The notes under the pieces: model-generated
The model's database searches: none
What the model saw: only the letters and a program-made list of their open reading frames with translations
Told to the model about the DNA's origin: nothing
Source of the DNA: Vermamoeba vermiformis
Taxonomy: Eukaryota
DNA length: 64,000 bases
Assembly (NCBI GenBank): GCA_045837725.1
Contig: JBEWZL010000300.1
Coordinates: 434,001-498,000 of the forward strand
Direction: 5' to 3'
Program-made: the position numbers and the translations under genes
Part shown: positions 1 through 58,704 of the stretch, in pieces
How the letters are laid out: each line of letters starts with the position of its first letter
How positions within the stretch are numbered: the stretch's first letter is position 1

Positions 1-794
1 GTGTCGTGGAGCGACATGTCAATCTTTACTAAGCTCACAACGCCCTTCCTCACTTCTGCGAGTAAGATCTTGACGCGTGCCATGAACAGTATTGACCTAG
101 CTATTATTACTAGTTGCTCGCTTCAACTGGCATCAAGCGTTCCATTCAGCTTCGTTCGACGAGTATCCGTTGGAGTACAACTACGGTGCCTTTGCACCCA
201 CGCACGGATTGAGATCGTGGAAGATGGTCATGAACGACGATCCTGCAACTGACGCGGGTGTTGCTAATCTAATTAACACCTACGAATCTGTGATTTCTCT
301 CTGGGGCGATGTAAGTGCCTGCGATTGGTACGTCAAGTAGAGTTAAATTAATCTCTGTGTCTATAGTACAACCAGACTTTCCCTGACTCCACCCCCACTC
401 CTTCTGCGTACCCTCCCTGGCGCGGGCCTTCCCATAGCCCGAGCTCATCCACTGAAGGTCCCTCCGGCTCCACTGGCACCACTTACGTCGCTCTTTGGGG
501 TACGAACAATTGTGACGTGATGTCTTGACAGGTGTCATTATCATCAAAAAGGTGTAAACACCTTGTCGCCGAATGATTTTGCGACTAACCTTAAAAGGAA
601 AAATTTATGACACGTGTCATTCGATATGAATTAACGTGTTACTAATACTGCTTATTTACACAGTCGTGGTACTCGTCGCTATCGCCGCGGTGATTGCATT
701 GATTATGGCTATTGTGTTCGGTGTCAAGTACGCACAAATGAAGAAGTTGGTTGGTGACGAGAGCAGAGCTCGCTTGCTTCCTTATGTTAATTAA
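1..794 (+). CDS. 3' part of a spliced type I membrane protein of unknown function (partial)
   Basis: Spliced exons read ...ARFNWHQAFHSASFDEYPLEYNYGAF...; a Ser/Thr/Pro stalk (STPTPSAYPP..SSSTEGPSGSTG); a TM helix VVVLVAIAAVIALIMAIVFGV; and the tail KYAQMKKLVGDESRARLLPYVN* ending at TAA 792-794. Confidence 0.65.
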
Positions 795-919
795 GACTTG
801 TCTCTTCAGGTGTGTTATTTTCATTATTGACTTTTGATAAACTTCAAAAATTTTAAACCCGAAGATTCGACTAGACTTTTTGATTTTACAACTGTACAAT
901 TTACTGGCAATCGATTATA

Positions 920-1440
920 TTACAATTTACGTTCGTAGTTTTCGCCATATAGAACGCTTGATACTCGAATTTTTGATGCTTCATTGCGTTCTCGTTGGAT
1001 GGATTTGCCAGTCGAACCTTTGTTTTTCTGAGTATGTGTTCTAACGCGAAAACTGCCAGTACCCGAAAAAAAAGTTCTTTTTTGGATTTTGTTGTGTTTT
1101 TCAGCGATATACTGGTTTGGGGGACTTGCCGATCGCTGAATCCAAGCTGGAAAACCGGTTGGATCAGGATTGACGCGTGGAATTTTAGAGTGCAATGTGT
1201 AGGTAGAGGAAATGTATGGCGTTCTATTAGAGGTGCTTCTATTGCTTAATATTTTTTTCGCGTGTTGGATTCTGCGCCCGGCCCTGTATGCAGCAATAAA
1301 TGAGTTTATTTTTCAATTAAATATTTCAATTAAACGATGTACCTTCCATTTTTCTTTTTCTTGTGGTCTTTCTTCATTATTATTGGTGTTTGCCATTTTA
1401 CTTTGCCCGCGCGAGCTAAGCGGCCCATTATCCACCTCAT
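920..1440 (-). CDS. Divergent ribosomal protein eS30-like protein with long C-terminal extension (copy 1)
   Basis: Two exons with intron 1284-1342 give MRWIMGRLARAGKVKWQTPIIMKKDHKKKKNGRAGRRIQHAKKIL.... This matches the eS30 pattern GSLARAGKVxxQTPKV..KKKK.GRAxRRxQY and continues open to ...LYGENYERKL*. Confidence 0.75.
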
Positions 1441-1710
1441 TTCGTTGAATGGGATTTAGTTTGTGGTTTTTTCTATCTACACTTGCACTAGAAATGATCT
1501 TTTTGCCCTTCTGATTTTTTACTCAGATCATCCGCGAGCAATTTTGTGACATGATGTCATGAATATTGGGTACGCACTAATGATTACTCTATGCTTATTG
1601 GTAGTTGGTAGTACAATGTTGAAGGAGAAAAAACTAGATCAACCGCGAGAATTCGCATTTACAGTTTATAATTTACATTAGTCCGAGTTCATAATCCTCA
1701 ACAAATAGCT

Positions 1711-2264
1711 TTACAGCTCTAGTTCGTAGTCTTCACCATATAGAGCAGCTGCGACTTTAATTCGTGAGGCTTGATTACGTTCTAGTTGGATGGATTTGCC
1801 AGTCGAACCTTTGTTCTTCTGGGTGTGCGTTCTGATGCGAAATCTATGCCCCGACGCGGTAGTAATAGCTTTTGTGATATATTTTGTCGTGCTTAATATC
1901 AGGAGTTTCGTTGGTTGGACCAGCCAATACCTGAATCCATTTTTTGTAACTGGTCACGTGGAGCCGGGCTCTATACTGTTTGCAATGAAGCGAGGATTTT
2001 TCCGATGCAAAGGATAGTCAATAGAGGTACTTTGGGTTCGATTGCACACCTCCGCGCCGTTTACAATCTTTTTGTTGAATTGATCTCGTTGTTTTGCCCT
2101 ACATCCAAAATTCCTTTTAGTTTCTCGCTCTTCATTTTTTTTAATAAGATAGATTTAATAGCGTACCTTCCGTATTTCTTCCTTTTGTCTTCTTTCTTGT
2201 GTACCTTTGGCGTTTGTAGTTTGACTTTGCCTGCATACCGTCTCGTAATGCAATGTCGGCACAT
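1711..2264 (-). CDS. Divergent eS30-like protein with C-terminal extension (copy 2); disrupted by apparent compensating frameshifts, possible pseudogene
   Basis: MCRHCITRRYAGKVKLQTPKVHKKEDKRKKYGR|AKQRDQFNKKIVN..., with the intron at the same position as in copy 1. The C-terminus FRIRTHTQKNKGSTGKSIQLERNQASRIKVAAALYGEDYELEL* is very similar to copy 1. The middle segment (WIQ...KHDKI) lies in another frame. Confidence 0.65.
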
Positions 2265-2507
2265 TTTACGCGAGATATGTATTGATTTGTTGTGCGTTAA
2301 TGATAGAGAATGGTTAACACGTTCGCTGATTTAAATTGGCGTCAGTTCTGACATTTTACTCAAATCCGTTTTTAGTCCCCGCTTCATACTCGGAATGCCG
2401 ACCGTTACAATGTAGTAATATTAACTTGTTATGCAAGTATTATGACAAGTCTAAAATGTTTGTCGCGGCTTTGTTGTGCTCGATCGAGTCATTTTTGGTT
2501 ATTGTAA

Positions 2508-3710
2508 ATGTCATCCAAGAAGAACTCCCACAAAAGAGCGCAAAATGGCAATAATAGGGACAAGACTACTAACATGATTAATGAAAGCGATATAATTGTT
2601 CGAGGAGTTAAACAAACGGACATTCCACAGATCAAGCAATTGCAGGTAAAATTCACGTTATTAAATGAGCCTCTAAATATTATAAAAAATTATAGAATAA
2701 TACGACAAACAATAATATAATATATTATGCGATTTTAATTGAATTTGGAGCCATTCTAAATTATTTCAGAATTTAAAATTAATTTTTGCCTGATCCAGGA
2801 TGTTCTATTCCCAATTAAGTACCAAGATAGATTTTACAAGCGATTATTATACCCCGATTGCCAGTGTGTCGTGGTCTTCAATGCCAACGAATCTGAATTA
2901 CTCGGTGTTGCTACCGCGAAGCCGATCCAAGACGATTTTAATCGAGTGTAAGGCCTAAAATATAATTACTATTTATTTTCCTATTTATTTATTAATTTTA
3001 AGGCATTTTTCGATCAAGGATCGGATCTGAATTAAGGCATTTCTTTTTAGGTGCTGGTCAGTTCTAAAGCGAAAATTTGTTAAGCGAGCGTGTATCCTTA
3101 TTAATATGTTGCTATTAATACTAATATAATGCTCCAATATAAATACAATGATCAGCTTGTGCCTCCTTGACTTTATTACTTTCAGATCTGATGACTTTTG
3201 GTGTCGCACCAAATGCACGAAAGCGAGGATTAGGCACATTTATATTATCTGTAAGTTATAATACTGATATATCATAATGATCTGTCGGTAACAGGATTTG
3301 ATTTAAAAAAATATTTTGAAACGATTTTTGGACCTGTATTTTAATTTGTTGATTTTTATTCGCAGAAAATTGAAGAAGAATTAAATGCGAAGAAATTTGA
3401 CGTGTTAAGTTTGCACGTTAAAACGGACAATATAGCAGCCATCAATTTTTACAAAAAGAACGGATTTTTTATCGTTAAGGAGTTGAAAGATTATTACGAG
3501 ATTGATGAAGAATTATATGACGCCTATATTATGAAAAAAAGACTAGAAAATTATACGAAAAAATATCGTGGCAATGTCGATGAAGAAAAAATGATGAAAA
3601 TTGGTGGCAAAAGCGACCGTATAGTAACATTAGTATTGTTATTATTATTTGTATTATTATGTGTTATAATAGTAGGGTATGGAATATACCTCGCTACAAA
3701 AGAAAGTTAA
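2508..3710 (+). CDS. GNAT N-acetyltransferase, NAA50/NAA60-like, with C-terminal transmembrane anchor
   Basis: Spliced motifs LQDVLFPIKYQDRFY, MTFGVAPNARKRGLG and LSLHVKTDNIAAINFYKKNGF..LKDYY; hydrophobic C-terminal helix IVTLVLLLLFVLLCVIIVGYGIYL. Confidence 0.8.
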
Positions 3711-3820
3711 TTTGTAAATAAAAAATATTCGGATCTGATCCAAAATGACAAAAAATTTTATTTTGTCGCGTGATTTTGATTGAATAAATAAGTGTTTGCA
3801 ACTATTCCAGAGCTATTTCC

Positions 3821-6800
3821 TTATATGGAATTACTTGTTGCGATGTTATCAGGCATCATCGAGTAATACGCATAATTCGGATTCTACCCAAAATTTAATC
3901 ATTAGTATTACTATTATAGACCTATAATAATATACTTACATATAAATTCTTCTGATTGAATTCAGCCGTTACAATTTTCAGCTTATCACGCAAAGTTGAA
4001 AATGAATCCAAGATCTGATCCAAAAAAATCGTTAGTCAGACACTAAGAGAAATTGAATTATATACCTTTGCATCAGTGAATTGAGTATTAACAAAGTTCC
4101 TTAATTGTCCGTTGCCGCTAACAGGTGCCGAATAAATGTTGGCCAATAACAGCTGCAAATAAGTTGTTTCTAGATCCGGTAATCTACGACACAAAATTAA
4201 CCATCGTATTATACTATACGTCTTAATTATTATACGTACGCCTTGGCGATGTCTTCGTCAGTCACGTGCTGCGTGTTCGAAGTCGGTGGAATGCCGTGCA
4301 GTGTCAGTGGCAGGTTGGGAATGAGCGACAAGTGCTCGTATCTGAAACTACGGTCAAAATCACATTCCACGCGAAATTAAATTCTAGAACAATAATAACG
4401 TATTATATATGATAATTTAAGCTTAAAAAGAGGGTAGGAGTATAAATAATGTACAAAATAAGGCAGGGTACCCTAAATAGTACAAGAGCTGTTGAACCCG
4501 AAAAAAATTCTATAAGTTCCGATAATTTCATTCGCAACACCACAATAATAATCGCCCATTGTACGGTTGCTTCGCTACGGAAAATTGCCCGTCCTGCTTA
4601 ATTTCGCAGGAGCAAGACCGGCGAATCCCTCTACGATGCGCAAGAAATACTCCCGCCTGTACAATCGCGAATTATTTCCAGCAACTTTGCACAAAGAGTT
4701 AGAGACCCAAATATTTTCTCCCGTTCCTTGGTGAATCCTCCCGCGTTTATTGGCAAGGAGGTACCAAAGCGAGTTGGGTTGTGTTGCTCATATTGCGGGA
4801 ATAAGAAAATGGAATTCACCGTACGGAAAAATTTAAATACTCCTACCCTCTTTTTAAATTTGAATGTTTAGGTCAAATTACCTTGTGAAATTTACAGCCG
4901 AATGTTGCACAGTTGTAATCCAAATAATCTAAGAAAAGATTAATATATAGCTTACTAATAATATTAATTATAGTGTTAAGGACGTACGTTGGTGCAAATT
5001 TCAGTCAATTCTTTGATCGATTTGACTTTTTCAGGCACACCGCGTAGTTTGCCCTCACTCGACAAGCTCTGGAAAAACGATTGCAAAACTAAGGTATTAC
5101 CATATTAGTACACGTGTCGGATACTATAAATAGCAAGTACTATTGGTCCGTACCTGCATCATGTTCGACCTCCTTATTGTCGTTATAAAGTACATCAAAA
5201 ATATTGGCCACCATGTCTTTAATTAGCCCGTGCAATCGTTTGCCGAAATCCCTAATAAGGAAGGTATTACTAAATAAGGCAAGTCGCATAAAATAGTTGC
5301 AAAGTTTCGTTATGATACCTGTACGGATAATACGGGAATTTTTTCACGTCGTCCACGGCTCTGATAGTCAATTCATTCAAGAAATATCCGCTCGTGAATT
5401 TGTGGTCGTTGAATGCTCTGTTGATCAACTTCAAGCCACCGTTCTCAGAGGCACTCAGCACTGTGGCGGTCGAGTACAGCGACGGTAGTAAATTCGATCG
5501 AACGAATTCCTGCGTGGCATTTGTGCCGTGGAAATGCGGCTTCAGCAATCTGTGAAATTTCACGTGTTAGATGCATCTCTATGTCCATATTTGGCAAGTA
5601 CAAGGGTGAATCCAAATTTTGCAGCCAGTTAAACGTTTTAACTGAATGAAAAATGGCAAAATGACAAGTTGTCTGGGATTTCCTTATTTGGTAAAAGGTC
5701 GCTACGTACTTGTAAATCGGGTGCGAAGAAGGCAAGTGGCGATTGAGACACGTGGCAATGACGTCAGCCACGATGTAATTGAGGGCCAAGTGACTGACGT
5801 ATTGGTGGTGATTAGCCTCGGCCATGCGGTACCTGCCAAGCCTCAGTCAGCCACACTTTCCAAATAAGGAAGTAATGCTTACCAAAGTTTGACCAAGAAC
5901 CACAACTTGGGGTTCTTCGTTTGATCTTCCGCGTAGAAAATTGGATTTTGTTCTGAGGTGTGATCGTCGCGCCAGTGCAGTTGAATGGCCACGGGCAACA
6001 GCTCGTTCTTTTCGTTCATTCTAAACAGACACGTGGGACGGATCATGTGTTGTAGGCGCGGACTGTTCGACGGTTCAATTTCTCGGAACGTCTCTCGGTA
6101 ATCGACCTGAAAAAAGATTTAAGTCTTAATTAGGCACACCGATCACATATTCTACTGCCGTTCATAGTCTAATTGACACGTGAAAAATATTTTTTTTGAC
6201 ACGTGTCAACGAGTGCTTTAACAGGCACGTGTCATTTTATCAGTTAAGTCTCGCTAATAATAACGCGTAGAGTTCTTTCGTAGCAGGTGACACGTGTCAT
6301 AATCATGGGTGCTTAGTACGTACCAAGAAAAATCTGTTCTCTTTGTCAGCTTCAACATCGAGTGTCTTGGCCAAGGAGATCTTCGTCTCGTCCAATTGAG
6401 CAAACACTTTGCGAATGACGACTGACGGCACGAGCAACAAGGTCGCGGGGTTCAATCCAATGACTTGTTCGCGACCGAATTCAATGTCTCGGTCCCACGC
6501 GTCATCGATGACACTTGTCGGGACTGGATGGTTAAATAACGATTTGAACGTGTCGTGGTCGTGAAATCTACGCAAAGATTAGCGGCACTGTTCGTTCATG
6601 AACAAAAATATCTTTTTCGTACCTCGCGAAAATTGTTGAGAAGGCCTTCACATTATGAATTTCTTTTTCTGTGAAAAATTATTTAGTACGGATACTATTA
6701 CCATAAAAGGAAATAAGCAGTCGTACCTGGGAGAGTTTTAATGGATTCAGCGGCGATTAATTTCAATAGTTGCAAAGTCAGTTCGGCCTTTCTGAACACT

Positions 6801-17887: not shown

Positions 17888-19815
17888 TCATTTTCGTTTC
17901 ATAATGATAAACACTACTACACCACTCATAATGGTTAATCCAGTGACTCCGGACATAACAATAGCTACTACAGCTATAAAAATCATTAGCGCATGCCAAC
18001 ACTCTTTTGAAATTAGATTTCACTTACCACCCGGAGAAAGTTCGTTGGCATGTTGACCGGTGCATTTATAGATATTGATGTATTTGGTTCACTAGATGCT
18101 ATAAGCGCAGCAGAAGGTGCAATGGACTGAGGTGTTGAAGGAGGGAAGAGAGCTTCGCAATATTGCAGATTCTACGAAGAATTTTCATTAGACTGGCTTG
18201 GTTATGTTAGGCCTTTATCGCTATTACTCACAAAATAATAACCGTTTTGAACATCGCTGCTCATATACTCCGCTTGCGCTGGTGAGAATGCCTTCACTTG
18301 TTTGCACGACAAATACTTGAATTGTTCGGTGGTCAAGACGGCAAGCTGCGACGGTGTCATGGCACTAATAGCACTTGGGGCTAGTCCTGAAAATGCAGCA
18401 TAACGTAGTGCGGTGATAGAATCAGCTGGGAAATACGCGAATTGCTCTGCAGAAAATGCGGCAACTGTCACGTTGGTGAGGTGTTTTGAGACGTTTGGAG
18501 TGAAGTAAATCATGTCTGAAGGCTGAATCAATTGCACGAGGTCCTTACGAAGACCTTTGAATGTTTCTGGAGCAAATTGAGCCAAGACGTTGCTGTCCAA
18601 AACAGGCTGCGGATCTGGCTTCACCAACGCGAGTTGCAACCACGTGATTTGCGAGATATTTTTCGATAAATCGTTCCACGACGTTATCATTTGTACCCGG
18701 CTCGGAATCAATTCCAAGAAATCTGTTTGAGAATAAAGCGTCAACCGCCAAGTTTGACACGTGTCACCACAACGCAGGGAACTTACTCGCAGTGAAGTGC
18801 TCGCCATAAAAAGCGACTTGATCGAGAGTCCAGCGATTGGCGATTGCGAGTTGGTATTGATTTATGAGATCTCCTAGAACTTCAGGGAACAAACTGACGA
18901 ATCCCATTTGAGTCAAGTACGACAGTTGCTCCACTGAAATTGCCATGACTGTACTTCGTGGCATCCAGTTAATTATAGAAGGACCAAATCCGGCGAATGA
19001 AGGCGCTGGAATGTTTTGGATCTGTTCGACAGTGATATTCGTAAACGCGAATGAATATAGAGAACTGATGCAGTCAGCTGTAAAGCCTTGGAATGTCGTC
19101 GCAGGCACGTCTTGAACGAATTCACTCTGAAGTCCAGTACACGCACCTCCCCAATTGGCCGTTGAGAAGTGCGCAAGACATTGCTTTGTGAGACCTGGCG
19201 CAGCGCTGTTAGGCAACGAGCGGATGTGGCCACTTCGGAATCCTGCGCAAGCTGTCGGGTCTAGCGCGGCAAGTTGTGTCGCATTAACGTACATCAACGT
19301 GTCTGTGCGGGTAGCATTGATACAATCACTCGTGAACCCGCGGAAAGATGGCGGATCCATTTGTGAAACCAACGAATAGATTAAGCCCGAGCAACCACTG
19401 CTATCACCTGTTGTTGTGAGGTTTGAAAGGCACGCAGCTGTCATGTGAATACGCAAAACAGACACTTGTGCAGCAGTGAATCCAGCACATGCCGAAGGAT
19501 TCAAACGCGAAAATTGTGCGTCGGAAACACTAGTGAATGACAGATAAGGCACTGCATTAATTTTCGCAGCAACAAAACCAGGGAATGCCTACATCCAACA
19601 GATTAGATCCTCGATAGCTATTGTTTGAGTAGTCTTACCTCAGGAGGGATAATCGACATTTGAAATGCAGATAAATCCTGAAAAGCGCTAATTGGCAAGT
19701 TGCTCAGCTCGGATGCGGTAATGTTTCCCCAGCTGACAGAATCAGCGTGGATCGAAGTAGCGAGGCACAATAGTACCAAAGTCGCTGCGAATACGCTCTT
19801 CATCGTTGCCTTCAT
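17888..19815 (-). CDS. Type I cell-surface protein with Cys-containing helical repeats
   Basis: Signal peptide MKATMKSVFAATLVLLCLATSIHA; repeats such as ACAGF..., F.GFT.DCI and T..QL..L; Ser/Pro stalk; TM helix AVVAIVMSGVTGLTIMSGVVVFII followed by MKRK*. Confidence 0.7.
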
Positions 19816-20171: not shown

Positions 20172-21598
20172 TCAATTCAATAACCGGGCCGTCTCTGTTT
20201 GCTGGTCACTGACAGGTCTCTTCAATAGGGCTATCAGCACATAGGTTGGAATCAGCTCGCAACCCAAGAACAACAGCAAACGAGTGATGATGCTAAACAC
20301 CAGATCTGAGTTACCCTTGAGAGGCATCCAAAGCATTGCCAACGACACAAATGTGATGATTGCTCTCAGACCGAAGGCTAAAGTGCAGACTAAGGTCAAG
20401 AAACCAATCTATTGCAAAACAACCGTCAGTACACACACAAAGTCGTAGATCTAAACACGTGTGGATTCAAAAAGACGGATCGTGTGATTCGGTGATACTA
20501 CGTATCTACAATACACCCTAATACGTACCTTTCGTGTCATTAATGCACGTCTTTGTGAGATGATCGGCAATCGACCAAGCTCGTTGTAGACTCTGCGGCC
20601 GTAGATGCTAAACACCAGAGCTGCTGCCAGAGATAAGAGACCACTGTAGAGTGCCTATTAATAAGTCCATTAGGTATTATTGCGATAGGGCAATGATAGT
20701 AAAACGGCAACAGGTAAATAACGATCCACGTCCCCAATACTTTCAGACTTGATTTGTTTCTGCCTAAATTCCTGAAATTACGTACCTCCAGCGGATGAAT
20801 TATATTGACCATAATTTGCGTTGAAAAAACAAAAATCAACACGAGGAATACGACGAGGATTATGTACACAAGCACGTTCACTATTAGATAGCCTCGTTGA
20901 ACGCGCTTGATGAATGTCGTGTTTAGGTCACGTGATCGGTAATACAAGATGACCCTAATTAGGAAAGTAATGCCGGTTAGTTAATTTTAACCGAGTTTTA
21001 TAAACGGACACTTTTAGACTGCCGTTCGTAAATAAATATCTGAGCGGGCATATAGAGGATTTCGATAATATAAGGTGATTTCTATGACTATTTAAGGCTG
21101 CTTTGTTGACATACCAAAACAAGACAAGCAAGATGTAGGCTGAAAAAAAGAAATAGCCTGGCAAGGCTCCAAAAGCAATAATTAACGGGTTGACTTGTTC
21201 CACAAAACTCTCTAGTAGATAAACATGACTGCCACCAAAGAAAATGCCAATTGTCATGTTTGCGATCCGTGCTGAAAATGGATTTATCAATAACGCCGAT
21301 AAAAAAATAAGCATTTTTATCGGGCGTTGCTTACCTAATAATGGCCACGGCAACAGCACTGCTCATTGCAAAAATAAAATATTAAAATCAATTGATTTAT
21401 GAAATGGATCAGATTGTAGATCTTACTGTAGATTGCTTTAACAAGACTCCAGTGATTTTTCGTGCTCGCCTTAGTTACACGAATCATATTTACAATCGAA
21501 ATTATAAATACAATCCCGTATAAAACCAAGAGAGAGTAAAATGTCGATTTTACGGCCAACAAAACAGATGGCGACGCTAATGGTTGATATTTGTCCAT
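20172..21598 (-). CDS. Seven-TM protein, THH1/TOM1/GPR137-like (DUF1084-type)
   Basis: Multiple TM helices with motifs ALPGYFFFSAYILLVLFW, CTLAFGLRAI and CELIPTYVL; dileucine tail ETARLLN*. Confidence 0.7.
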
Positions 21599-23097: not shown

Positions 23098-26000
23098 ATG
23101 CAAAACCAACCTGGAAACCCCTTCGTTTATCCTAAGGATGTTGGTATTATTGCCATGGACATCTACTTCCCCTCGACCTGTGTGTCTCAAGAGGAATTAG
23201 GTAGGTCGGATTTCGGTGATCTCAAACTCGATCGAGCCGTTGGGAAGTTCCCGAAGGCTTATACATTTATTTGCGGCTTAAATTGCGAGAATTATAACGT
23301 GCACGAGGAATTCTAGTCCAAATATTCTTTTTAAGATGATAATTAACCAAACCCTCAGAAAAATTCGATCAAGTCCCTGCTGGCAAATACACCGTTGGTC
23401 TTGGTCAAAAGACTATGGCCTTCGTTGGAGACCGTGAAGATGTCAACTCAATCTGCCTTACTGGTAATTATTTAAGATTATTTATTAATTATTTTCGATT
23501 ATTGGCATTTTTCATCGGTTAATTGATTCTAAATGTTACAATTAGTTGTCAAGAACTTGTTCGAGAAGTACAATATCAACCCTAAGGATATTGGTCGTTT
23601 GGAAGTCGGTACTGAGACTATTCTCGACAAATCCAAGGCAATTAAGACCGTGCTCATGGATCTCTTCAAGGAGTCCGGCAACTTCAACGTTTTGGGTAAG
23701 AAGAATTAAATATTACCAAATATCGCATAAATATCGCGAAAACTAACCGACGCAATGTGTTCTTGCATGTCTAAATATGGATTCGATTCCTAGGTATTGA
23801 CAACAAGAACGCTTGCTACGGAGGTACTGCCGCCTTGTTCAACTCCATTGACTGGATGGAATCTTCTTACTGGGACGGTCGTTACGCCCTTGTTGTTGCC
23901 GCTGACGTTGCTGTCTACGAAAAGGGTACGCGATCTCTATAGTTAATAATTAGGCGCTAGTTATGCAAGGTGAAGCTAATGTATTGAATTATAGGCCCTG
24001 CCAGACCTACTGGTGGTTGCGGTTGCGCTGCCATGTTGATTGGCCCCAACGCTCCTCTTGTTTTCGAGCGCGGTACGCAAAATCAATACAAAGTTGAGGT
24101 CGTACATTGACAATAACATCCTTGCTACAGGCTTGAGAGCTGCTCACATGGAGCACGTCTACGACTTCTACAAGCCCTTGCCCACCTCTGAGTACCCCAC
24201 TGTTGACGGCAAGTTGTCTGTCAGCTGCTACTTGAGAGCTCTTGATAACTGCTTCCAAATCTATGCCAAGAAATTCTATGCTAAGGTACGTGTAGCATTC
24301 GAGAATAATACTCGGATGGAGAATAACTTGTTTCAATAGGAGGGTCACAAATACAGTTTGAACGACGCTGATTACTACGTCTTCCATGCTCCTTACAACA
24401 AGTTGGTTCAAAAGTCTTTCGGTCGCTTGGTACGCACGAGATATAAATTTGAGTCTGCAACGTGCTAACATGTTGTGACAGTTCTACAACGATTTCTTGC
24501 TCAACAAGAGCAACCTCGCTTACAAAGACGTTCAACACTTGGCTGACGTCCCCACCGAAAAGAGCTACGACAACCGCGAGATTGAAGAGACTTTCGTCAA
24601 GATGTCCAAGAACGCTTACAACACCAAGGTTCTTCCTTCAACTGTCGTCCCCACTCAAATTGGTAACACCTACACTGCTTCATTGTACTTCGGATTTGCC
24701 TCCCTGTTGGCAACTATTGGCAGCGCTGGTTTGGTAAGTCTTACAACCATTTTTCTTAAGATTACGACGAAATGAGGAAATTTTCAACCGGAGAGACATT
24801 AGCGTTTACTCTAGTGGTCGGGACACGGCTTTTTTTGAACGACCGAGCATCAAGCACCTATGGCCGAGTTGGTCTAAGGCGTTAGACTCAAGTTCTAATG
24901 GGGGTAACTCCGCGTGGGTTCGAATCCCACTGGGTGCAAGCAATTAATTTTTTTTTGCCTTCGCTACCTTCCTACTCTCTACTTGCGTGTCTTCTTGCGA
25001 TCCCACTATGCAAACAACAAATTTTTTTGCCTCCGCATGCTTTGTTTTATATGTTCCCTAATTACGGACCAGCAAGCGTCCGTTTTGGTTAGGCAATTAG
25101 CTCGATGCAGTTGCAACCGGAACATAATTTTTTGCTCCTCGCATTTGTCCGTTTGAGTTGGAGTTGCCTTCGCACGCGTTGTCCCGTGTCAACAAATTAT
25201 TTTGCAATATTCGTTTCTACGTATTTATGCCAATACTTTGCTGTGCTCTCATATTGGTATCAAACTGACTCGAGCTCGCACTCGCGCTTTACATTGATCG
25301 ATGTCAACTGTCTTGACTAACGAATGGGGTTCTCGCGACCTTTCCGACCCAACAACTCAAGACACCGTGGCCGAGTGGTTAAGGCGGCGGACTAGAAATC
25401 CTCTGGGCTCTGCCCGCGCAGGTTCGAATCCTGCCGGTGTCGACAAATTTTTTTGCTTCGGTACGCTGTGGTTGAGGAACATTAGACCTTGTTTTTTTTA
25501 TCACCGCTGAAATTGCACCAAAAATATTCGAGTTCCTTATGCTTTGAAGGACTCTGTTGAGTTCGCATGCCTCCCACTCCTGACAGTCAAGCATTTGTAG
25601 CGTATGGTCCTTTGGTGACCTGGTCACGTGCTCCTCGTGCACCTAATCAACCAACGGGTTCGTGGTGCACTTGGTAGCACGTCCGCTTAGCATGCGGGAG
25701 GTACGGGGATCGAAACCCTGCGAATCCAATTTCTTTTTTGCCGTCCCCGCTCTCTATGCTTTATTTTTGTCTTGCTATTCGTGGACCTTCTCGTCGTTGC
25801 CTTCCCCACCCTACTTTTGCTCGTTGATCTTTCAAACCTCGCTTCACACGACTTGTGTTACGGTTTCTCGCTCAACACTTTACGCTTTTACCGATGTTCT
25901 TCCTCTATTTATTTTATCGTTTGATTGATTACTAACATTTTTTTGCCAATAGCAAGGCAAACGCTTGATTATGTTCTCTTACGGATCTGGCTTGGCCTCT

Positions 26001-37398: not shown

Positions 37399-40300
37399 AT
37401 GAGCCAGTCATTCCTTCGATGGTTCTTGTTTGCTACGGGCATATTAATAGAAGTAGAAGTGGAGAAGAAAGCCCCAAAAGGGTTTTTAGATTCGACACTT
37501 TCATTCTTCGGCGTTAAAGATAATACGCAGAAAATCATAGTACACAAGGTCATGATAAACACGTCCTCTCCTGCATTATATATATTATTATTTATTTTTA
37601 CAATTTTTGTGATTTATTTGGTGATCAAGATCAGGCAATTTCGCTCTAGAAGAACCAAAGCCGATCCAAATCCAGCACCCGTTGTTAAGAGCGATAAAAG
37701 AAAGAGTTGGTTATTCAATAGAGCTCCAGTCATGCCAGAGAATCAAAACGATACGAAATCTGAATCTAAAGTGGTTCAAGTTCAACCGTCGAAAGCTGAC
37801 ATCATAAGTATGTTCTCCATATATATATACAGTATAGCTAATAATTAAATAAGATCGATTCAATCAGCAAAAAGCGACGACAGCTCCCAGATCAAAAGTG
37901 ACACTCGATGAGCTTTTGCGACGGGACAGCGGATCTGATTCAAGTTCGACTAGGCCGTTGAGTCCCAGAGATAAAGGTACATATTAAATATTAATACAGC
38001 GAATCAAATTTAAATTGTGCACCACAAATTTCAATCGATAAAATCTTCGCTTTGATTTTTAAAACTTGAAAGCTTTAAAATACTTACTTAGCCTCGATAA
38101 TATTATCTATGTTATTGATACGTATATTTATATATGCTTATTGGTTTTAAGACCTGATTTAAGATGTCAAATTGACGTTACTTTTAAAGGCAACGAAGCG
38201 GATCAAAAGGCGAAAGAACGAGAAAAAGAACTGCAAAGACAAAAAGAGAAAGAAAAAGAATTACAACGCGAAAAAGAACGCGCAGAACAACGAGAAAAAG
38301 AGTTGCAAAGACAAAACGAGAAAGAAAAAGAACAGCAAAGACAACGCGAGCTCCAAGAACAGCGCGAAAAAGAGCGCAAAGAGCAAAAAGAACGGGAAGT
38401 TCAACGCGCAAAAGAATTGCAAAAAGAAAAAGAACTGCAAAGAGAAAAAGAAAAAGAGGCGCAAAAAGAAAAAGAACGACAGCGCGAGCGTGAAAAAGAA
38501 TTGCAAAAAGAAAAAGAAAAAGAATTACAGCGACAAAAAGAGTTGCAAAGACAAGCTGAAAAAGACGCGAAGACGGCTGATAGTCCAAAAAAGGAAATTT
38601 GGGTGTCAAAAGAAGAATCGCAGGCCGTGTCAAATTCACGTCCGTTAATTGACTTTGCCAATGACACTAATGTCGATTCATTATTCCAAAAATTCATCGA
38701 CACTGATGACTTTATGACCTCGCTGCAGATCCACGAAAAAATCAAAACCAGTACGTATACCTTATTTATATCCCTTTCAATAATCTTCATATAATTTTAT
38801 TAATATCATGATATATAGTCCTTAAAATCGGTGACGGCGATGAATTCTACGAACAAATGAAGGCCCGAACAGCGCGCAATGTGCTCATTAGTCCTTTATT
38901 CAAATTATTGGACAAAAAGAAAGCCATAGTAAGACTATACTATTATTCACTTACTATGATATATTCTAATTCATAATGCGTTATTAGTCGGATTACAAGT
39001 TGAACAGTGTTCACAAGCCGAAAGTGCTAGTTATCGGTGCTGGTGTTGCGGGCCTAAGAACAGCAATCGAGTTCTGTCTGCTTGGCGCTACAGTAGGTCC
39101 CGCCTACTTACTATATTAGGCAATTTTACTCACTTGGTATACTTAGGTCACTGTCCTCGAGAAGCGAAAGTCGTTCACTAGACATAACTTGCTGCACATT
39201 TGGGACTCTACTATTAGCGACTTAACGGTACGCAACTCCTCATTTGTATTAACGCCCATACTGACTTGCCTTATATAGACATGCGGAATCAAATTCTTCT
39301 ATCCCAAGTTCTGCACGGGTGGCATTCATCACGTGTCCATTAAACGATTGCAATTATTGCTCACGAAGATAGCACTATTGTGCGGCACTAATATCGTGCC
39401 TGGCTTCTCATTTGCAGGCATTGAAGAGGACCCGCTCATTGACGATCCTATTTACGGACCCTTATGGACTGCAAAGGTAAGTTAGTCCGCTCACTGAAAA
39501 ACGAAATTTCATCGTACTAACGGCCAATTAGATCTCTGAGACTGAGCCCTTGTTGCCTAAATCAGTGGTGCAATGCAACGTGTTGATCGGCGCGGACGGT
39601 CAAAACTCGAATGTGGCCAAACTATTCAATTTTGAGCGCAAAGTATTCAAAGGCTCTGAAGCGATTGGTATCACCGCCAACTTCCTCAACAAACAATCCA
39701 AAGCTGAAATTTCACTCAACGAATTCGGTCTCATGTCGGTCTACAACAAACCAGTGCGTGCAGGAAATGACATTTTTTTTTCCATTACTAACGTTTATTT
39801 TGCAGTTTTTCAACGAATTGAAAGACAAATACGACATTGATCTCGAGAACTTGGTGTATTACCGCGGTGAGACCCACTACTTTGTGATGACCGCCAAGCG
39901 TGACAGTCTATTGAAACGAGGTGTCATTAAGGTACAGTATTCACAATGCCAAGCATAGTCTGTTTTATTAATATTGATATCGCAGTCTAATACTGGAGAT
40001 ATTATGAACCCCGCGAACATTAACTACGACAAACTTAAAGAATATGTTAGAGTAAGTCACGCTAGTTTTTAACGCAAAAAAAATTGACACGTGTCAGATT
40101 GTTGCTTCGCACGTCAAGCTTCCCGATGACTTGCCTTTTATAGCCAATCACAAGTAAGTAGTATGTTCAGCTTGTCGAGTAGTACTTACCATATTAATAG
40201 GGGCGAACATGACGTTCAAATCTTTGACTTTTCATCGCGCCAAGAGAGCACTGAACCGTTCAAGTGGCTCAAGAACAAAGAGACCGGTCACGAACTGCCC

Positions 40301-49085: not shown

Positions 49086-50819
49086 ATGGGCAATTATCTC
49101 GGTGGTGGTGGAGCTCAAGGCACTTCGTTTAGGAAGTCAGAGCTATTGTTAAAACAAGATGGTGCTTTATTTGAAATTTGGAAAGGAGCCGAAGTGGATG
49201 TCAGCGGCCAAGAAAAGCCAGTGACAATATTTTATTTTGATGGTGCTCAAGCTACTCAAGAAAAGGTCGCCTTAGTAAAGAACGCCATTACTGTAAGCAT
49301 CATTTGCATCCAAGACAAAATCATTAATTTTATATTTTCTAAAATTATGTAGACCATATTAAGCAATATAATTGCGATATACATACATGTTTATAATTTC
49401 TACGCCTACTAATAATATTTTCTGGCAGCGTACAAAGCTGATCAGGATTCCTGAAACAATTACCTTTAAAAATGCCGACGAAATCAACGGTGCTTTAGTA
49501 ATTGCTACAGAATACGTAGAACCATTGTCAAAGAAACTATCGGAGCTATCAATTGACGAGAAGATTGCTGGCTTGCATAATATAGTGGTAAATAGAAATT
49601 GAATCGGATCTCAATTCATTTTGCGATTGATTCTGATTTGATTGTATTTAGAAAGCGTTAGATTTCGTACATACAAAGGCGAATCCTATTATTGAACACA
49701 GGAACGTTACCCTCAACTCCATATTTGTAAATCCGTCGGATTCCAGTACGTGCTCATTACTTCTCCGACAAAATCGACTAATAACCGTTAAATAGCTGAT
49801 TGGAAGCTCGGTGGATTTGAATTGGCTACTCCTGCAACTGAAAACGTCGGTGCAAGCGACATTAAGTACGTACAATAGTTGACTCGATCTCTGATCTCGC
49901 AGCTAATTCTTCAATAGACAATTGGCCGATCTTATTGAACAACTTGGCATTACTAAGGCCCAATCCAATTTATATGATCTCCCTGCATTCATTGCCAGCG
50001 CCAAGAGCTCTTCACCTCAATCCTGCGGTGCTTTCTTAAAGTCGAAATTCTTCAAAGAGAACAGCTTTGTCGGCATTATTTCGTACTTGAGAGATATGGT
50101 TAATAAGTCAAATGAAGAGAATACTCAATTCTTCCAGTAAGTCTCTCTAAGTACAAATGAACTTCCTGACTGATCTGATCTGTTCGCTAGTACTCTGCAA
50201 TCCAAACTTGCTGAAGTCCCGCGTGAACGACTTGTATCCAATATTTTGCCTCGTTTGAAGAAGTTCCACGTGCTAGTCGAGCCCAGCGCACAAGAATTCT
50301 TGCCTGCGTTCTTTTCAGTCCGTGGACAAGAAGCCGATGATTGTACGTGCACTCTATAAGCCCGTATATTTTTTCATGTCAACTAATCGTCAACTTTGCA
50401 GCCGTTACTGGTCTATGGACAGCAGAAGAGTTCCGAAAGTACATTGCAGAATTTGTGGCTTGGACGTTCTCACAAACCTCGCCAGAACTGAAGATCATAA
50501 TGCTGCGAAACATTCGACATTGCTTGCACACGTTCACTGCAAAGTCATTGGCTGATATTCTCAGCGAGGTAAGGAAGATCCAGCAAAACTTTCGTTCCTC
50601 TCTCCGTACCGTCCTGGACCCCAGTTTTTGCGCTCCCCGAAGCAACTGGAGGGTGCATGGTGCACTTGGTAGCACGTCCGCTTCGCATGCGGGAGGTACG
50701 GGGATCGAAGCCCTGTGCATCCAACATTTTTTTAATTTTTCTCGGTCGCCGTTTCGCTCATTTTGACGACCTGATTTGGTTCGGGCGTTCCATCAATCAA
50801 CAAAGCGAAGTGGCGCAGT

Positions 50820-50850
<31 letters not shown>

Positions 50851-52641
50851 CCAGGATCGAAACCTGGCTTCGCTAATCTTTTTTTTGCTTCCACGACCTT
50901 CTTGTCAGCTTGTTTGACCCTTTTTGTTTAGCTTGCCAACTCGCTGAGCACCTCAAGGCACAACGAGTTCGTAGACGAAGCAGCTGGTGCAATCAGTGCA
51001 ATTCTCAAACACGTTGCAGCGAACAATGGTACGTGTCACGACCGACTGTCTCCCACATATTCTTCTAACGCCCTTTTTTAGTTGTTATCGAGCCGAGGGA
51101 GACTATTAGACAAACACAATTGGCTATGATTATGTGCGCGAAAGATACCACCGATGACGACGTCAAAGCCAACATGTTACTACGCATCAGCGAGTTACTC
51201 GACAGTACTGTAAGTCACGCGTATTATTGCTATTGCTTCAGTCACTAACATCATTTCTTAGTGGCCTGAAGATAAATTGGCAGACTTGTTCTTCGCGTGC
51301 TCGTTGCCTGGCAAATCAGATCGAGTGCGCCAAGCTGGAGCTGCTTTCGCAGTCAATTTGGTCCGATCCGCTCGAGGCGAAGCGGTGTCAAAACTCTATC
51401 CAAACGTTGTGCGCACCCTCGGTTACATGATGGTTGACAAAGACAAGTATGTTTTCATCCCTTTTTACTGCTGGATTCTTACTTTGTATTCAGATCTGTG
51501 CGCGAGACCGCCTACCATTCATTGGTTCAATCTGCTAACTACGTGATGGAGCTTCTTGGTCATAACATTCAACTCCACTCTAGCAATGCTGGCGGTGATC
51601 TGTCGATAAAGAAGGTGAAACCTGCCACGAGATCATCACGCTCCTCAGTCGCGTCATCACCGCGTACTAGCGCTAGCTTTGACAAGCCCGTCGTACCTAC
51701 CAATTACACGAAATCAGTGCCAACTCAGCCTACTATTGTTAAAGAGGCACCGAAGGCTAGTTCAGCTGGTTGGGGTGACTTTGGAGGCTTCGATGAGGAT
51801 GACTTTGAGTCAAAGAAGGACAACAATGAAACAACACTTCCCGACCACTCGTTTGACTCGCAACAGTCGCTTGTCACTTCAACACCGATCAAAGTTAGCC
51901 CTGCCTACGATGAAATTCTCGTGCCGAGCAACCCACCGAAACAAGAGAAGAAGGAACCTGTTGTTGAAGAAGAAGACGAGTTCTCAATGTTCGGTTTGGC
52001 GCCTAAGATCAAAGCTGCTCCTACTCTTGTAGTCGAGAAGCCTATCTCCCCACCTCTCGCCACGAAGAAACCAGTCACTAAGGTCATTGAAGAAGAGCCA
52101 GTCCTGACGACAAGCACGAGACTGCATGGGTCTATTGTAGCTGATGAGGCTGACTTGGGGCTCGGCGAATCAGGTACGCAATCAAAGCTATTATCATCAT
52201 TGTCAGTTCTAACCTAATCTCGTAGCGTGGGGTGTTGACGACTCGATGTTGGACATTGATTTGCCAAATACTAACACTGCAACTGTCGAGTCTCCTGTCG
52301 ACACCACGAGCACTACAGCTTCTGAGACTACTCCTGCTGCCGTACCAGAGCCTACTCCTGTTGAAAGCGCTACACCTGAGCCAACTGTCGCATCTACGAA
52401 CGTGGATCCGACACCCGTTGTTGACACGCCCAAGGAGCCCGTCGTCGAACAACAAACTAGCTCGCCTGAACCTACCCGCGAACCTTCCCCACCAACGAGT
52501 GAAGCAACTTCTGAGCCCAAGACGAAAGAAACTCGACCCGCCAAAGGAAGAAAACCTGATGCAGGAAGCGCAAAGAAGAAGGCCACTAAAAAGCCTGAAG
52601 TCGCTAAGGTACAGTTGAACTTTGATTTTGATGACGAGTAA
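49086..52641 (+). CDS. SCY1-like pseudokinase with HEAT-like repeats and disordered Pro/Thr-rich tail
   Basis: N-terminal MG myristoylation-like start; KPVTIF, LVIATEYVEPL, HRNVTLNSIFV, WKLGGFELA, VRTLGYMMVDKD and GWGDF motifs. Confidence 0.8.
50651..50723 (+). tRNA. tRNA-Ala(CGC), intronic
   Basis: Acceptor GGGTGCA/TGCATCC with G3:U70, anticodon loop TTCGCAT; body nearly identical to the tRNA-Ala(AGC) at 25656. Confidence 0.93.
50804..50875 (+). tRNA. Initiator tRNA-Met(CAT), intronic
   Basis: A1:U72 pair, GGG/CCC anticodon stem, loop CCCATAA, T loop GATCGAAAC (A54/A60), downstream T-run. Confidence 0.95.
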
Positions 52642-56397: not shown

Positions 56398-58704
56398 TTA
56401 ATCCATTTTCTTTATGAGATCTGCCGCAATTTTTATAGCAGTGGCGATATCCGGGGCGTAGTATGCATCGAGCATTGCATCAGTACACTCAGGAATGAAC
56501 TGAGAGAGCGAAGATCTGACGCGCGAAGTTTTTCTGTAGGTGTTGTCTACGTACACAACCGGCCGACCAATCAGCGTGGCCATAATACTCGCGTGCAATC
56601 GATCAGCAATAACCACGCGACCGCGACTCAACATCATGTTGCCGATCTGCGTCCTGTACCACGTAATAGCCTCTGTTGACGGCACGAATTTGTGATACTG
56701 CAAGCGTCCAGGGTAAATATAGCCCATGTCTTGAATGACCGTCTTGTTCTTGTGCTCGAGCAATGGGAACGAGTGAATAGGAAAGTCCCACACTTCCGCA
56801 GACAGGCCGTACTTCTGCGCCAGTGCCTTGGGACTGTTTTCCGTATAATTGATCGCTACTTCACCGTCCGTGCGGAGCAAGTACAATATGTCCACGACAG
56901 GGTCTGTGTTGGGCAGTTGAGGTCCGAGCATGAAGGCCGAGTCAGGCACGAACGGAGCACGTGCGTACGTGAAATTTCCCTGCACGTACTTCTGCGATTC
57001 AAAGTCGCGAACCATCATAGTCAAGTCTTTGTGTTTGTACGCCTTCACCATCCTCGCAAGTCTGTTCGGGTCATTGTAATGCACGGACTGTGGCAGCATG
57101 ACTATAGTCGTGTCTTTGAGCGTGGCAGTAACGCGCGTTCGATAATTGTCTGAGCTGAGATAGATGTCACCAAAATTACCGCCGCCGTGCAAAAATACCA
57201 CGCCACCATCGCCCTGTCAATGACGCGTGTCAATACTAATCCATTGGCAATAAACGCAAAAATCAAAGTATCGTGTGTTAGTTATAAATTTAACTTTGTA
57301 GATCTTGTTCAAATTTGTGTGCTATGCGGATCGATTTCAGATCACTTTTTAAATCAAAGTCGTGTGCGGAGAGGGACTTACATTAGGCACATTATGCAGT
57401 GCAGAGTGCGGCAGTGGAGGTCGCCGTGGCACTTGACCATACACGCTGAACATGAGGCTTTGTCCGACGTAAATGAATGCATCGCCCAAGTTCCAGTGAT
57501 TCGGGAAGTCCAATATAGTAAAGTTTTTACCGCGATGGAAGTGCGGCATAACGAGCTCGATGTACGCAGATCTGGTCTTCTGCAAGCACTGCAGTCGATA
57601 CATATTGCGTTGAGCAGCGGGCATGTTGCGGTCATTGAAGTCTACTGTCATGTTCTTGAACGGTTTCGGTGGTTTAAAGTCACGTGCGTTGAACCAAGTC
57701 ACGTGGACGGACAAGATCAGCGTGGATGCGATCACCACCAAAGCAATGGTCCAATATGAAACAGCACTATTATGTTGTTTTTCCTTATTTGGCAAGTTCT
57801 CTGTAACGGCTAATTGATCGTCAGTTTGGCTCTTAATAGAACAATAGGCAGCCATTAATAGCACTGAAGTTGACACCAGTGTTGCGATCAGATGCGTGCC
57901 AACGAGTGTTACGAGTGCGACTGTAATAGCAGTGATAGTATGTATAATCATCTCTGTGAACTGCGTAGTAGTTTGCCGATCAGTTCTCTTGCAAATCCAC
58001 TGCGATAATGTAGCGAGGGCCCAGAACGCCAACAAAGAGTTGTCAGGAGTCACATTTTGCTTGAATAATTGCCTTTCATCTGCTGAAGTCAACATAGTAA
58101 GACAGATAACTAGGACTGCATAGCCAAATTCGGTTAAGTCGGGATTGTTTGCCGGATTTTGCTGGTTGGTACGAGTGGACAAATTCCGGGTCTCATGAGC
58201 TATAAGGACTGACGTAGCAGCTATAATGATTTCTGCGATTGATATTTGTGCGCCAAAGCTGAAGATCATGGTGCCGATAATGCCGAAAAGTAACGCTCCG
58301 AGCCGACTTCGGGATCTCGAGGAGATTACGTTTGTGATACTAAATAGTATGAGCTGTACGATATATTAGTAAGCTTGTCTCGTAAAAAATGTAATTAATT
58401 AAATGATTAAAATTAAATTATGAATTTAACTCCTTACCGTAATAACTGCGTATGAGGCCGGATTCACCTTCGAGATTGACACGTAGAACATAATTACGTC
58501 TATGGCATGGAACAATATCAATTCAAGTGACGCAGTTTGTTGTCCTTCGCCCGTCCATAGTTTGACGCCGGATGTAATAAGAGTTACGATAGAGAACGAG
58601 AGCGCCAATAACAGGGGCGTGTACGATAAATGCACGACGTAATAAATAAATAATAGGCGGCCAATATTGGCGCCCAGAAGAGCTGTTAATTTTACCGCAG
58701 GCAT
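56398..58704 (-). CDS. Polysaccharide pyruvyltransferase (Pvg1/EpsO-like) fused to an N-terminal multi-pass membrane domain
   Basis: LDFPNHWNLGDAFI, FLHGGGNFGDIY, LPQSVHY, MVRDFES, PDSAFMLG, LLRTDGE, RVVIADRLHASI and DNTYRK; ~270 aa of TM helices upstream, continuous within ORF 57349-58269. Confidence 0.85.

Follow-up and report, generated by a model that had tools for sequence, protein, structure and literature searches.

Diverged tandem eS30-like genes of Vermamoeba vermiformis and their conserved C-terminal module

The ribosomal protein eS30 (RPS30) is in its canonical form a small protein of about 60 residues, alone or with an added N-terminal ubiquitin-like domain, that is highly conserved both between and within genomes and is located next to where mRNA enters and is decoded on the 40S subunit. 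Where it is made as a FUBI-eS30 fusion (FAU), FUBI is cleaved off before the fusion protein functions. The mRNA channel of the 40S subunit is also occupied by free hibernation factors of the Stm1/SERBP1 type, and the Lso2/CCDC124 type comprises further hibernation or ribosome-silencing factors. PMC7780240 places eS30 beside uS12 at the h17-h18 junction, where it has contact with eIF3j, a factor with a tail that extends into the mRNA entry. Ribosomal-protein paralogues that mark specialised ribosomes are represented by eRpL22 and eRpL22-like in Drosophila (PMC6743460).

Two tandem eS30-like genes, here called A and B, were found on the minus strand of the window analysed (a 64,000-nt stretch of V. 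vermiformis DNA), with coding regions at 920-1440 and 1711-2264, respectively. Judged by homology, they are two members of a small, lineage-restricted eS30 paralogue family with a new C-terminal module. Their likeness to canonical eS30 lies in the N-terminal ~45 residues, which match Pfam Ribosomal_S30 (PF04758) and bring up only eS30 chains as credible hits among the solved structures listed, and in their very basic composition. They differ in size (153-158 residues compared with ~60), in leaving profile positions 44-58 unmatched whilst carrying a ~100-residue extension with conserved motifs of its own, and in a much faster divergence (57 % identity between neighbouring copies). As in FAU, eS30 is fused to a second module, and the 130-133-residue FUBI-eS30 chains were among the structural matches; the extra part here is, however, C-terminal and not ubiquitin-like. 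No ubiquitin-family Pfam match was obtained on any piece or relative scanned, the eS30 core begins at most 10 residues from the start codon, and in gene A an in-frame stop six codons 5' of the ATG leaves no room for an N-terminal domain. The genes share with the eRpL22 pair the character of a duplicated, diverged ribosomal protein copy that might equip a subset of ribosomes, but the whole fold is kept there, whereas here one-third has been replaced and a new conserved module added. Any likeness to Stm1/SERBP1 is speculative and concerns the proposed mode only, a basic disordered polypeptide in the mRNA path or close to it; the sequences are not alike, and the segment would here be anchored to the core of a ribosomal protein instead of acting as a free factor. 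No description of an eS30 copy with a conserved extra C-terminal domain was found in the literature searched.

The DNA of A and B could be aligned end to end, exon ends included, with a mean column identity of 76 %, and the sole long direct repeat of the region (135 nt, 79 % identical) lies at the 3' ends of both genes. Neither a third copy nor a canonical RPS30 was found within the 64-kb window by tblastn. The first-pass annotation had proposed that the eS30 homology spans an intron at the same site in both genes, and this was borne out: the two introns (Table 1) interrupt the same codon in the same phase, the Arg codon of the GR/A motif of gene A being split after its second base. When spliced, gene A forms a clean open frame of 153 codons and encodes a very basic protein (pI 11.6; 36 K+R and 7 D+E in 153 residues), to which relatives P0001-P0016 could be aligned along the length of exon 2. 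The claim that each copy continues for about 100 residues past the eS30 core holds for gene A but not for gene B as it stands in the window, where the frame is broken by a TGA and shifted codons.

Table 1. Positions of the parts of genes A and B in the window (X4, sequencing run described in the text)
Feature	Positions	Strand	Description
Gene A coding exon 1	1343-1440	-	ATG at 1438-1440; N-terminal two-thirds of the diverged eS30 core; Pfam match
Gene A intron	1284-1342	-	59 nt, GT..AG, phase 2
Gene A exon 2	920-1283	-	End of eS30 core, family-specific linker and C-terminal module; TAA stop at 920-922
Gene A C-terminal module	923-1051	-	43 codons: basic stretch (SHxQKxKGSTGK type), predicted helix, acidic end
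Gene B 5'UTR exon	2353-2472	-	Joint 2294->2353 in X4 record 4
Gene B 5'UTR intron	2295-2352	-	58 nt; acceptor in the window CG, not AG
Gene B coding exon 1	2167-2264	-	ATG at 2262-2264; diverged eS30 core; Pfam match; transcript exon reaches 2294
Gene B intron	2099-2166	-	68 nt, GT..AG; codon and phase as in gene A
Gene B last exon	1711-2098	-	TAA stop at 1711-1713; broken in this assembly
Gene B C-terminal module	1714-1842	-	43 codons, intact, in frame with exon 2

Elsewhere in the window, a single-exon gene for a polysaccharide pyruvyl transferase (56401-57216, minus strand; Pfam PS_pyruv_trans, E 3.8e-21), whose nearest Atlas clusters are 99-100 % bacterial, may have been acquired from bacteria. 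Rfam models detected only six tRNAs in the whole window, including a cluster at 24854-25728 (Leu-CAA, Ser-AGA and Ala-AGC) and another at 50651-50875 (Ala-CGC and Met-CAT); the two tRNA-Ala genes with their flanks form a 97-nt repeat of 85 % identity. At 38205-38565 (plus strand) lies an open frame with much Lys, Glu, Gln and Arg; it is made up of degenerate repeats whose register follows multiples of 6 nt (eight copies of a 121-nt unit at 62-70 % identity) and has the appearance of a charged coiled-coil segment. ALTTAQ repeats (Pfam PF20080, E 9.9e-8) occur in long open frames at 18205-19588 on the minus strand; no mention of this repeat name was found in the literature search.

Evidence for joined forms came from run X4, which is labelled as another organism and whose RNA nature is only guessed. 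It gave four contigs on this region, at a low mean word depth (4-6), depth being a poor measure of expression. A 553-nt contig led from the 5'UTR exon of gene B, across a skipped intron of 58 nt, into the B eS30 exon (record 4, 2166-2294) and, across a further skipped intron of 68 nt, on to position 1786 in the tail module. The second of these joints (2097->2166) omits 68 letters, reads CT..AC on the plus strand and has 129 letters on its shorter side. Since the contig spans both, the eS30 part and the tail are on one molecule, and the possibility of an mRNA ending directly after the eS30 part, raised in the first-pass annotation, found no support. For gene A, record 2 spans 1342-1476, which takes the 5'UTR to at least 1476, and 16 further letters of it fit 1267-1282 and thereby give the canonical junction. 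Record 1 spans 995-1282 and carries the joint 1346->1282, with 63 letters omitted and four fewer exon letters, which breaks the gene A frame; this shorter junction could reflect a GA donor or an allele four letters shorter. The absence of three introns from the X4 contigs is best read as processed transcripts; given the uncertain nature of X4, an origin of the joined forms from DNA retrocopies is conceivable but less likely. The splicing at both coding introns that had been anticipated was thus seen, in contigs of presumed RNA with another organism's label. Three RNA runs bearing the species label of the window yielded 2, 0 and 2 partial reads on 500-2700 and are uninformative, the flanking genes being equally near-empty.

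Gene B is broken in the assembly, yet intact in a nearly identical X4 contig. In the window an in-frame TGA (1954-1956) lies 3' of the eS30 part, and from about 1957 to 1868 some 30 codons are read in a frame that differs from that of the gene A homologue, because B carries 20 and 4 letters more than A in the DNA alignment; gene B as assembled is therefore not a whole gene. The X4 contig is shorter by 8 letters at about 1957 and by 1 at 1868, and otherwise matches the window exactly over 1786-2097. Removal of these 8 + 1 letters gives an intact frame of 158 codons that is colinear with the family and has all the family motifs. The window may here show a null allele or a difference between strains, or the assembly may be in error. 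Other ways of rescuing the frame were rejected: an 8-letter GT..AG at ~1957-1950 is far too short for an intron beside the 55-68-nt introns found here, an 89-nt intron from GT(1957) to AG(1869) meets a stop after nine codons, and recoding of TGA has no support, as TAA is the stop codon of both genes and nothing else pointed to recoding. Both genes have variants with a broken frame (for B the window sequence, for A one of two X4 junction contigs), which suggests that the genes are dispensable. The 5'UTR exon of gene B shows five letter differences and three gaps to X4 over 120 bases, far above the coding part; an out-of-frame ATG there (2385-2387) is present in the window but not in the X4 contig (T>G at 2387).

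Membership of the core in the eS30 family was assessed with Ribosomal_S30, a profile of 58 positions with a gathering cut-off of 27 bits. Exon 1 of gene A on its own (33 residues) scored 35.6 bits (E 1.1e-8) and exon 1 of gene B 29.6 bits (E 7.9e-7), so that in the profile check suggested by the first-pass annotation both copies lie above the curated cut-off; the matches cover positions 4-31. These were the only two of five pieces scanned that exceeded it. The remaining three (A exon 2, and B exon 2 before and after the stop) gave no Pfam family above threshold, the B tail piece returning two chance-level rows only (TAF10, E 0.089; DUF4785_3rd, E 0.13). Among the relatives, the full-length P0007 scored 36.1 bits over positions 9-43, and P0010, which begins inside the core, scored 21.1 bits, under the cut-off. 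Positions 44-58 were unmatched in all pieces and relatives scanned, none of which covers the whole domain. When P0007 was compared with solved structures, eS30 or FUBI-eS30 chains made up 59 of the 60 best rows (best E 2e-5), the odd row being noise (E 0.62); the solved eS30 chains are mostly of 41-67 residues, or 130-133 as fusions, with single chains of 98 and 176. The eS30 core residues G, V, K, Q, K, K, G and R were invariant in all four exon-1 sequences, whilst in the core of the metagenome gene L002 the QTPKV stretch has disappeared and an insert of nine residues is present. On this evidence the first ~45 residues keep an eS30 core (about positions 4-43), and the extension occupies the place of the last third of eS30. 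As the profile score lies above the cut-off but domain coverage, size and conservation depart from those of eS30, the genes were filed as an eS30-derived paralogue family and not as eS30 proper.

The extension of about 100 residues is very basic and, by prediction, mostly disordered, with several family motifs. Those of the linker are LHxKxPRF, a conserved Trp and NENI. The tail has 11 invariant columns in an alignment of nine sequences, with a motif of the type SHxQKxKGSTGKxIQ followed by conserved helix positions and, in most members, an acidic end. The 43-residue module is predicted to run from a basic stretch through a single amphipathic helix to an acidic end. An AlphaFold2 model of A exon 2, built on the nine-sequence alignment, was poor (mean pLDDT 60, pTM 0.24), and only the helix at residues 91-112 of the exon reached a pLDDT of about 80. 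The extension had no Pfam family at E <= 10 on gene A or at E <= 1 on six relatives, a family profile of eight sequences gave no match at E <= 10 among 177,635 distinct PDB sequences, and the tail had no usable match among Atlas clusters. No described family in these three collections, hibernation and silencing factors included, covers the extension, and the module remains as unrecognised as it had first seemed. The tail was also considered as an RNA element and rejected, with no Rfam match at E <= 1 on 1-5000 and a codon pattern of protein constraint. An origin as an internal duplicate of the eS30 core, hinted at by a MAFFT misalignment, was likewise discarded after hhalign gave only a trivial 9-column overlap (probability 16 %).

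Relatives were sought in several ways. A word-indexed search with A exon 2 recovered one, P0001, and 1.84 billion cluster representatives, searched exhaustively with a profile, gave six proteins at E <= 1e-3, of which five belong to the family. P0005, a bacterial-type repeat protein of 1339 residues matched in nine stretches, was dropped as compositional. A second profile search added P0016, and a search seeded with the extension of the most distant member returned itself only. None of the 14 cluster members listed had an NCBI or UniRef source; among those listed, the name 'hypothetical protein' is borne by three and 'ribosomal protein S30' by two. The database entries are for the most part exon-2 fragments, but P0007 (153 residues) and P0010 (130 residues) unite the eS30 part and the tail in one protein. 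Full genes are also present on the metagenome contigs L001 and L002, with introns of 56 and 55 nt, and the intron lies in the same codon and phase in all four genes examined (A, B, L001 and L002). The first-pass proposal of a family of eS30-derived proteins with a conserved C-terminal module is upheld by this shared architecture and intron. Within the reach of these homology searches the family is real but tiny and lineage-restricted. None of 102 pattern matches in viral contigs and none of 48 in prokaryotic genomes could be confirmed, and viral and prokaryotic origins were rejected. Small shares of the words of the region occur in water, soil and drinking-water metagenomes, an observation of no evidential weight.

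A multi-exon membrane-protein gene on L001 (1443-2241) has about 80 % protein identity to window positions 20202-21016, 19 kb from the eS30-like genes, and by this gene content L001 is in loose synteny with the window and derives from a related organism. The eS30-like protein of L001 shares only 76 of 147 residues with A and 75 of 151 with B, about half, against the ~80 % of the neighbouring gene; the family therefore evolves fast.

Selection was examined by Nei-Gojobori counts between A and the intact (X4-form) B. The eS30 core has 21 of 37 residues identical (57 %), with pN 0.29 and pS 0.77 (saturated), the linker 22 of 65, with dN 0.61 and dS 1.9, and the tail 32 of 43 (74 %), with dN 0.145, dS 0.70 and a ratio of about 0.2, which supplies the dN/dS comparison between copies that had been suggested at the outset. 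In all three regions amino-acid-changing differences are fewer than silent ones. In DNA the identity over the last 43 codons is 79 %, with 9, 6 and 12 differences at first, second and third codon positions, and 1, 0 and 5 in the first 19 codons, in keeping with the many third-position changes noticed initially. The tail is indeed the best-kept part, although the first-pass wording, 'far more conserved' than the core, overstated a difference of 74 % against 57 % identity. Between A and L001, which come from different organisms, the tail dN is similarly low (0.158). Synonymous codons vary across the four genes in both the invariant motif and the core motif, and the constraint therefore acts on the protein. 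Silent-site difference in the tail, over 43 codons only, is lower (pS 0.46) than elsewhere (0.69-0.77). The family is thus expressed (in X4, presumed RNA), under purifying selection and intron-conserved.

Binding at the site of eS30 has most probably been preserved, given that the protein retains the conserved part of the eS30 core. In a subset of ribosomes or pre-ribosomes, this core would stand in for eS30 on the small subunit, where the 40S body (h17-h18) meets the head next to the mRNA entry side. From there the extension would bring its conserved module close to the mRNA channel or to the factor-binding face, and translation by such subunits would be altered or silenced. We give this reading, binding at the eS30 site with the module placed nearby and translation changed or blocked on a subset of subunits, a probability of roughly 0.45. 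The fast divergence of the core for a ribosomal protein, with 21 of 37 residues identical between tandem copies, counts against it, as do the altered core of L002, the frame-breaking variants, the poor structure model and the uncertain nature of X4.

The main rival, doubtful but the one to be taken most seriously, is a new role off the mature ribosome, in which a basic, disordered product would bind nucleic acids, reside in the nucleolus or act as a decoy for eS30 assembly partners, and the core would serve as a generic RNA-binding or nuclear-import segment. Such a role would fit a core that diverges fast and has lost its last third, the Pfam matches ending at position 43 of 58, as well as a structure model that is mostly disordered, a best-kept part that is the new tail and not the core, and the tolerance of frame-breaking variants. 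It accords less well with a core that still exceeds the Pfam cut-off, keeps the most conserved eS30 residues in all four exon-1 sequences and is itself under purifying selection (pN 0.29, pS 0.77).

It is highly improbable that A and B are simply the ordinary eS30 of this lineage, with a C-terminal extension gained and no separate canonical gene. One relative is called 'ribosomal protein S30' by its source, and canonical RPS30 is absent from the window, a statement that concerns the 64 kb only. Against this stand tandem cores that are only 57 % identical, an L001 protein far more diverged than its neighbouring gene, low X4 coverage (itself a poor guide to expression) and a copy B that is broken in the window; fast divergence and the broken copy together make this explanation unlikely. 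Least probable of those considered is that the genes are decaying RPS30 duplicates without present function, their tail conservation due to recent gene conversion or chance: the stop and frameshifted stretch of B, the one out-of-frame gene A contig of X4 and the lower tail pS, which tandem gene conversion could produce, point that way, but A has a clean open frame, B is intact in X4, and pure decay is unlikely because the tail is conserved across organisms, recurring with synonymous variation in five other protein clusters and two metagenome loci and with a similarly low dN between A and L001.

Returning to the reading in which the core binds the eS30 site, a more specific form of it, unlikely as it stands, is that the paralogue is a built-in silencing or tuning element. 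With the core at the eS30 site and the tethered, conserved basic-helical tail in the mRNA entry channel or at the A-site factor face, it would be a cis-attached counterpart of free hibernation factors and would mark dormant or specialised 40S subunits in a little-sampled lineage.

Short, intron-split genes such as those of this family escape annotation. Fusions and paralogues of ribosomal proteins are among the few routes to new built-in ribosome functions. If the products of A and B are on ribosomes, they would represent a natural ribosome variant defined by one swapped protein; if they are not, a ribosomal protein core would have been re-used for another job.
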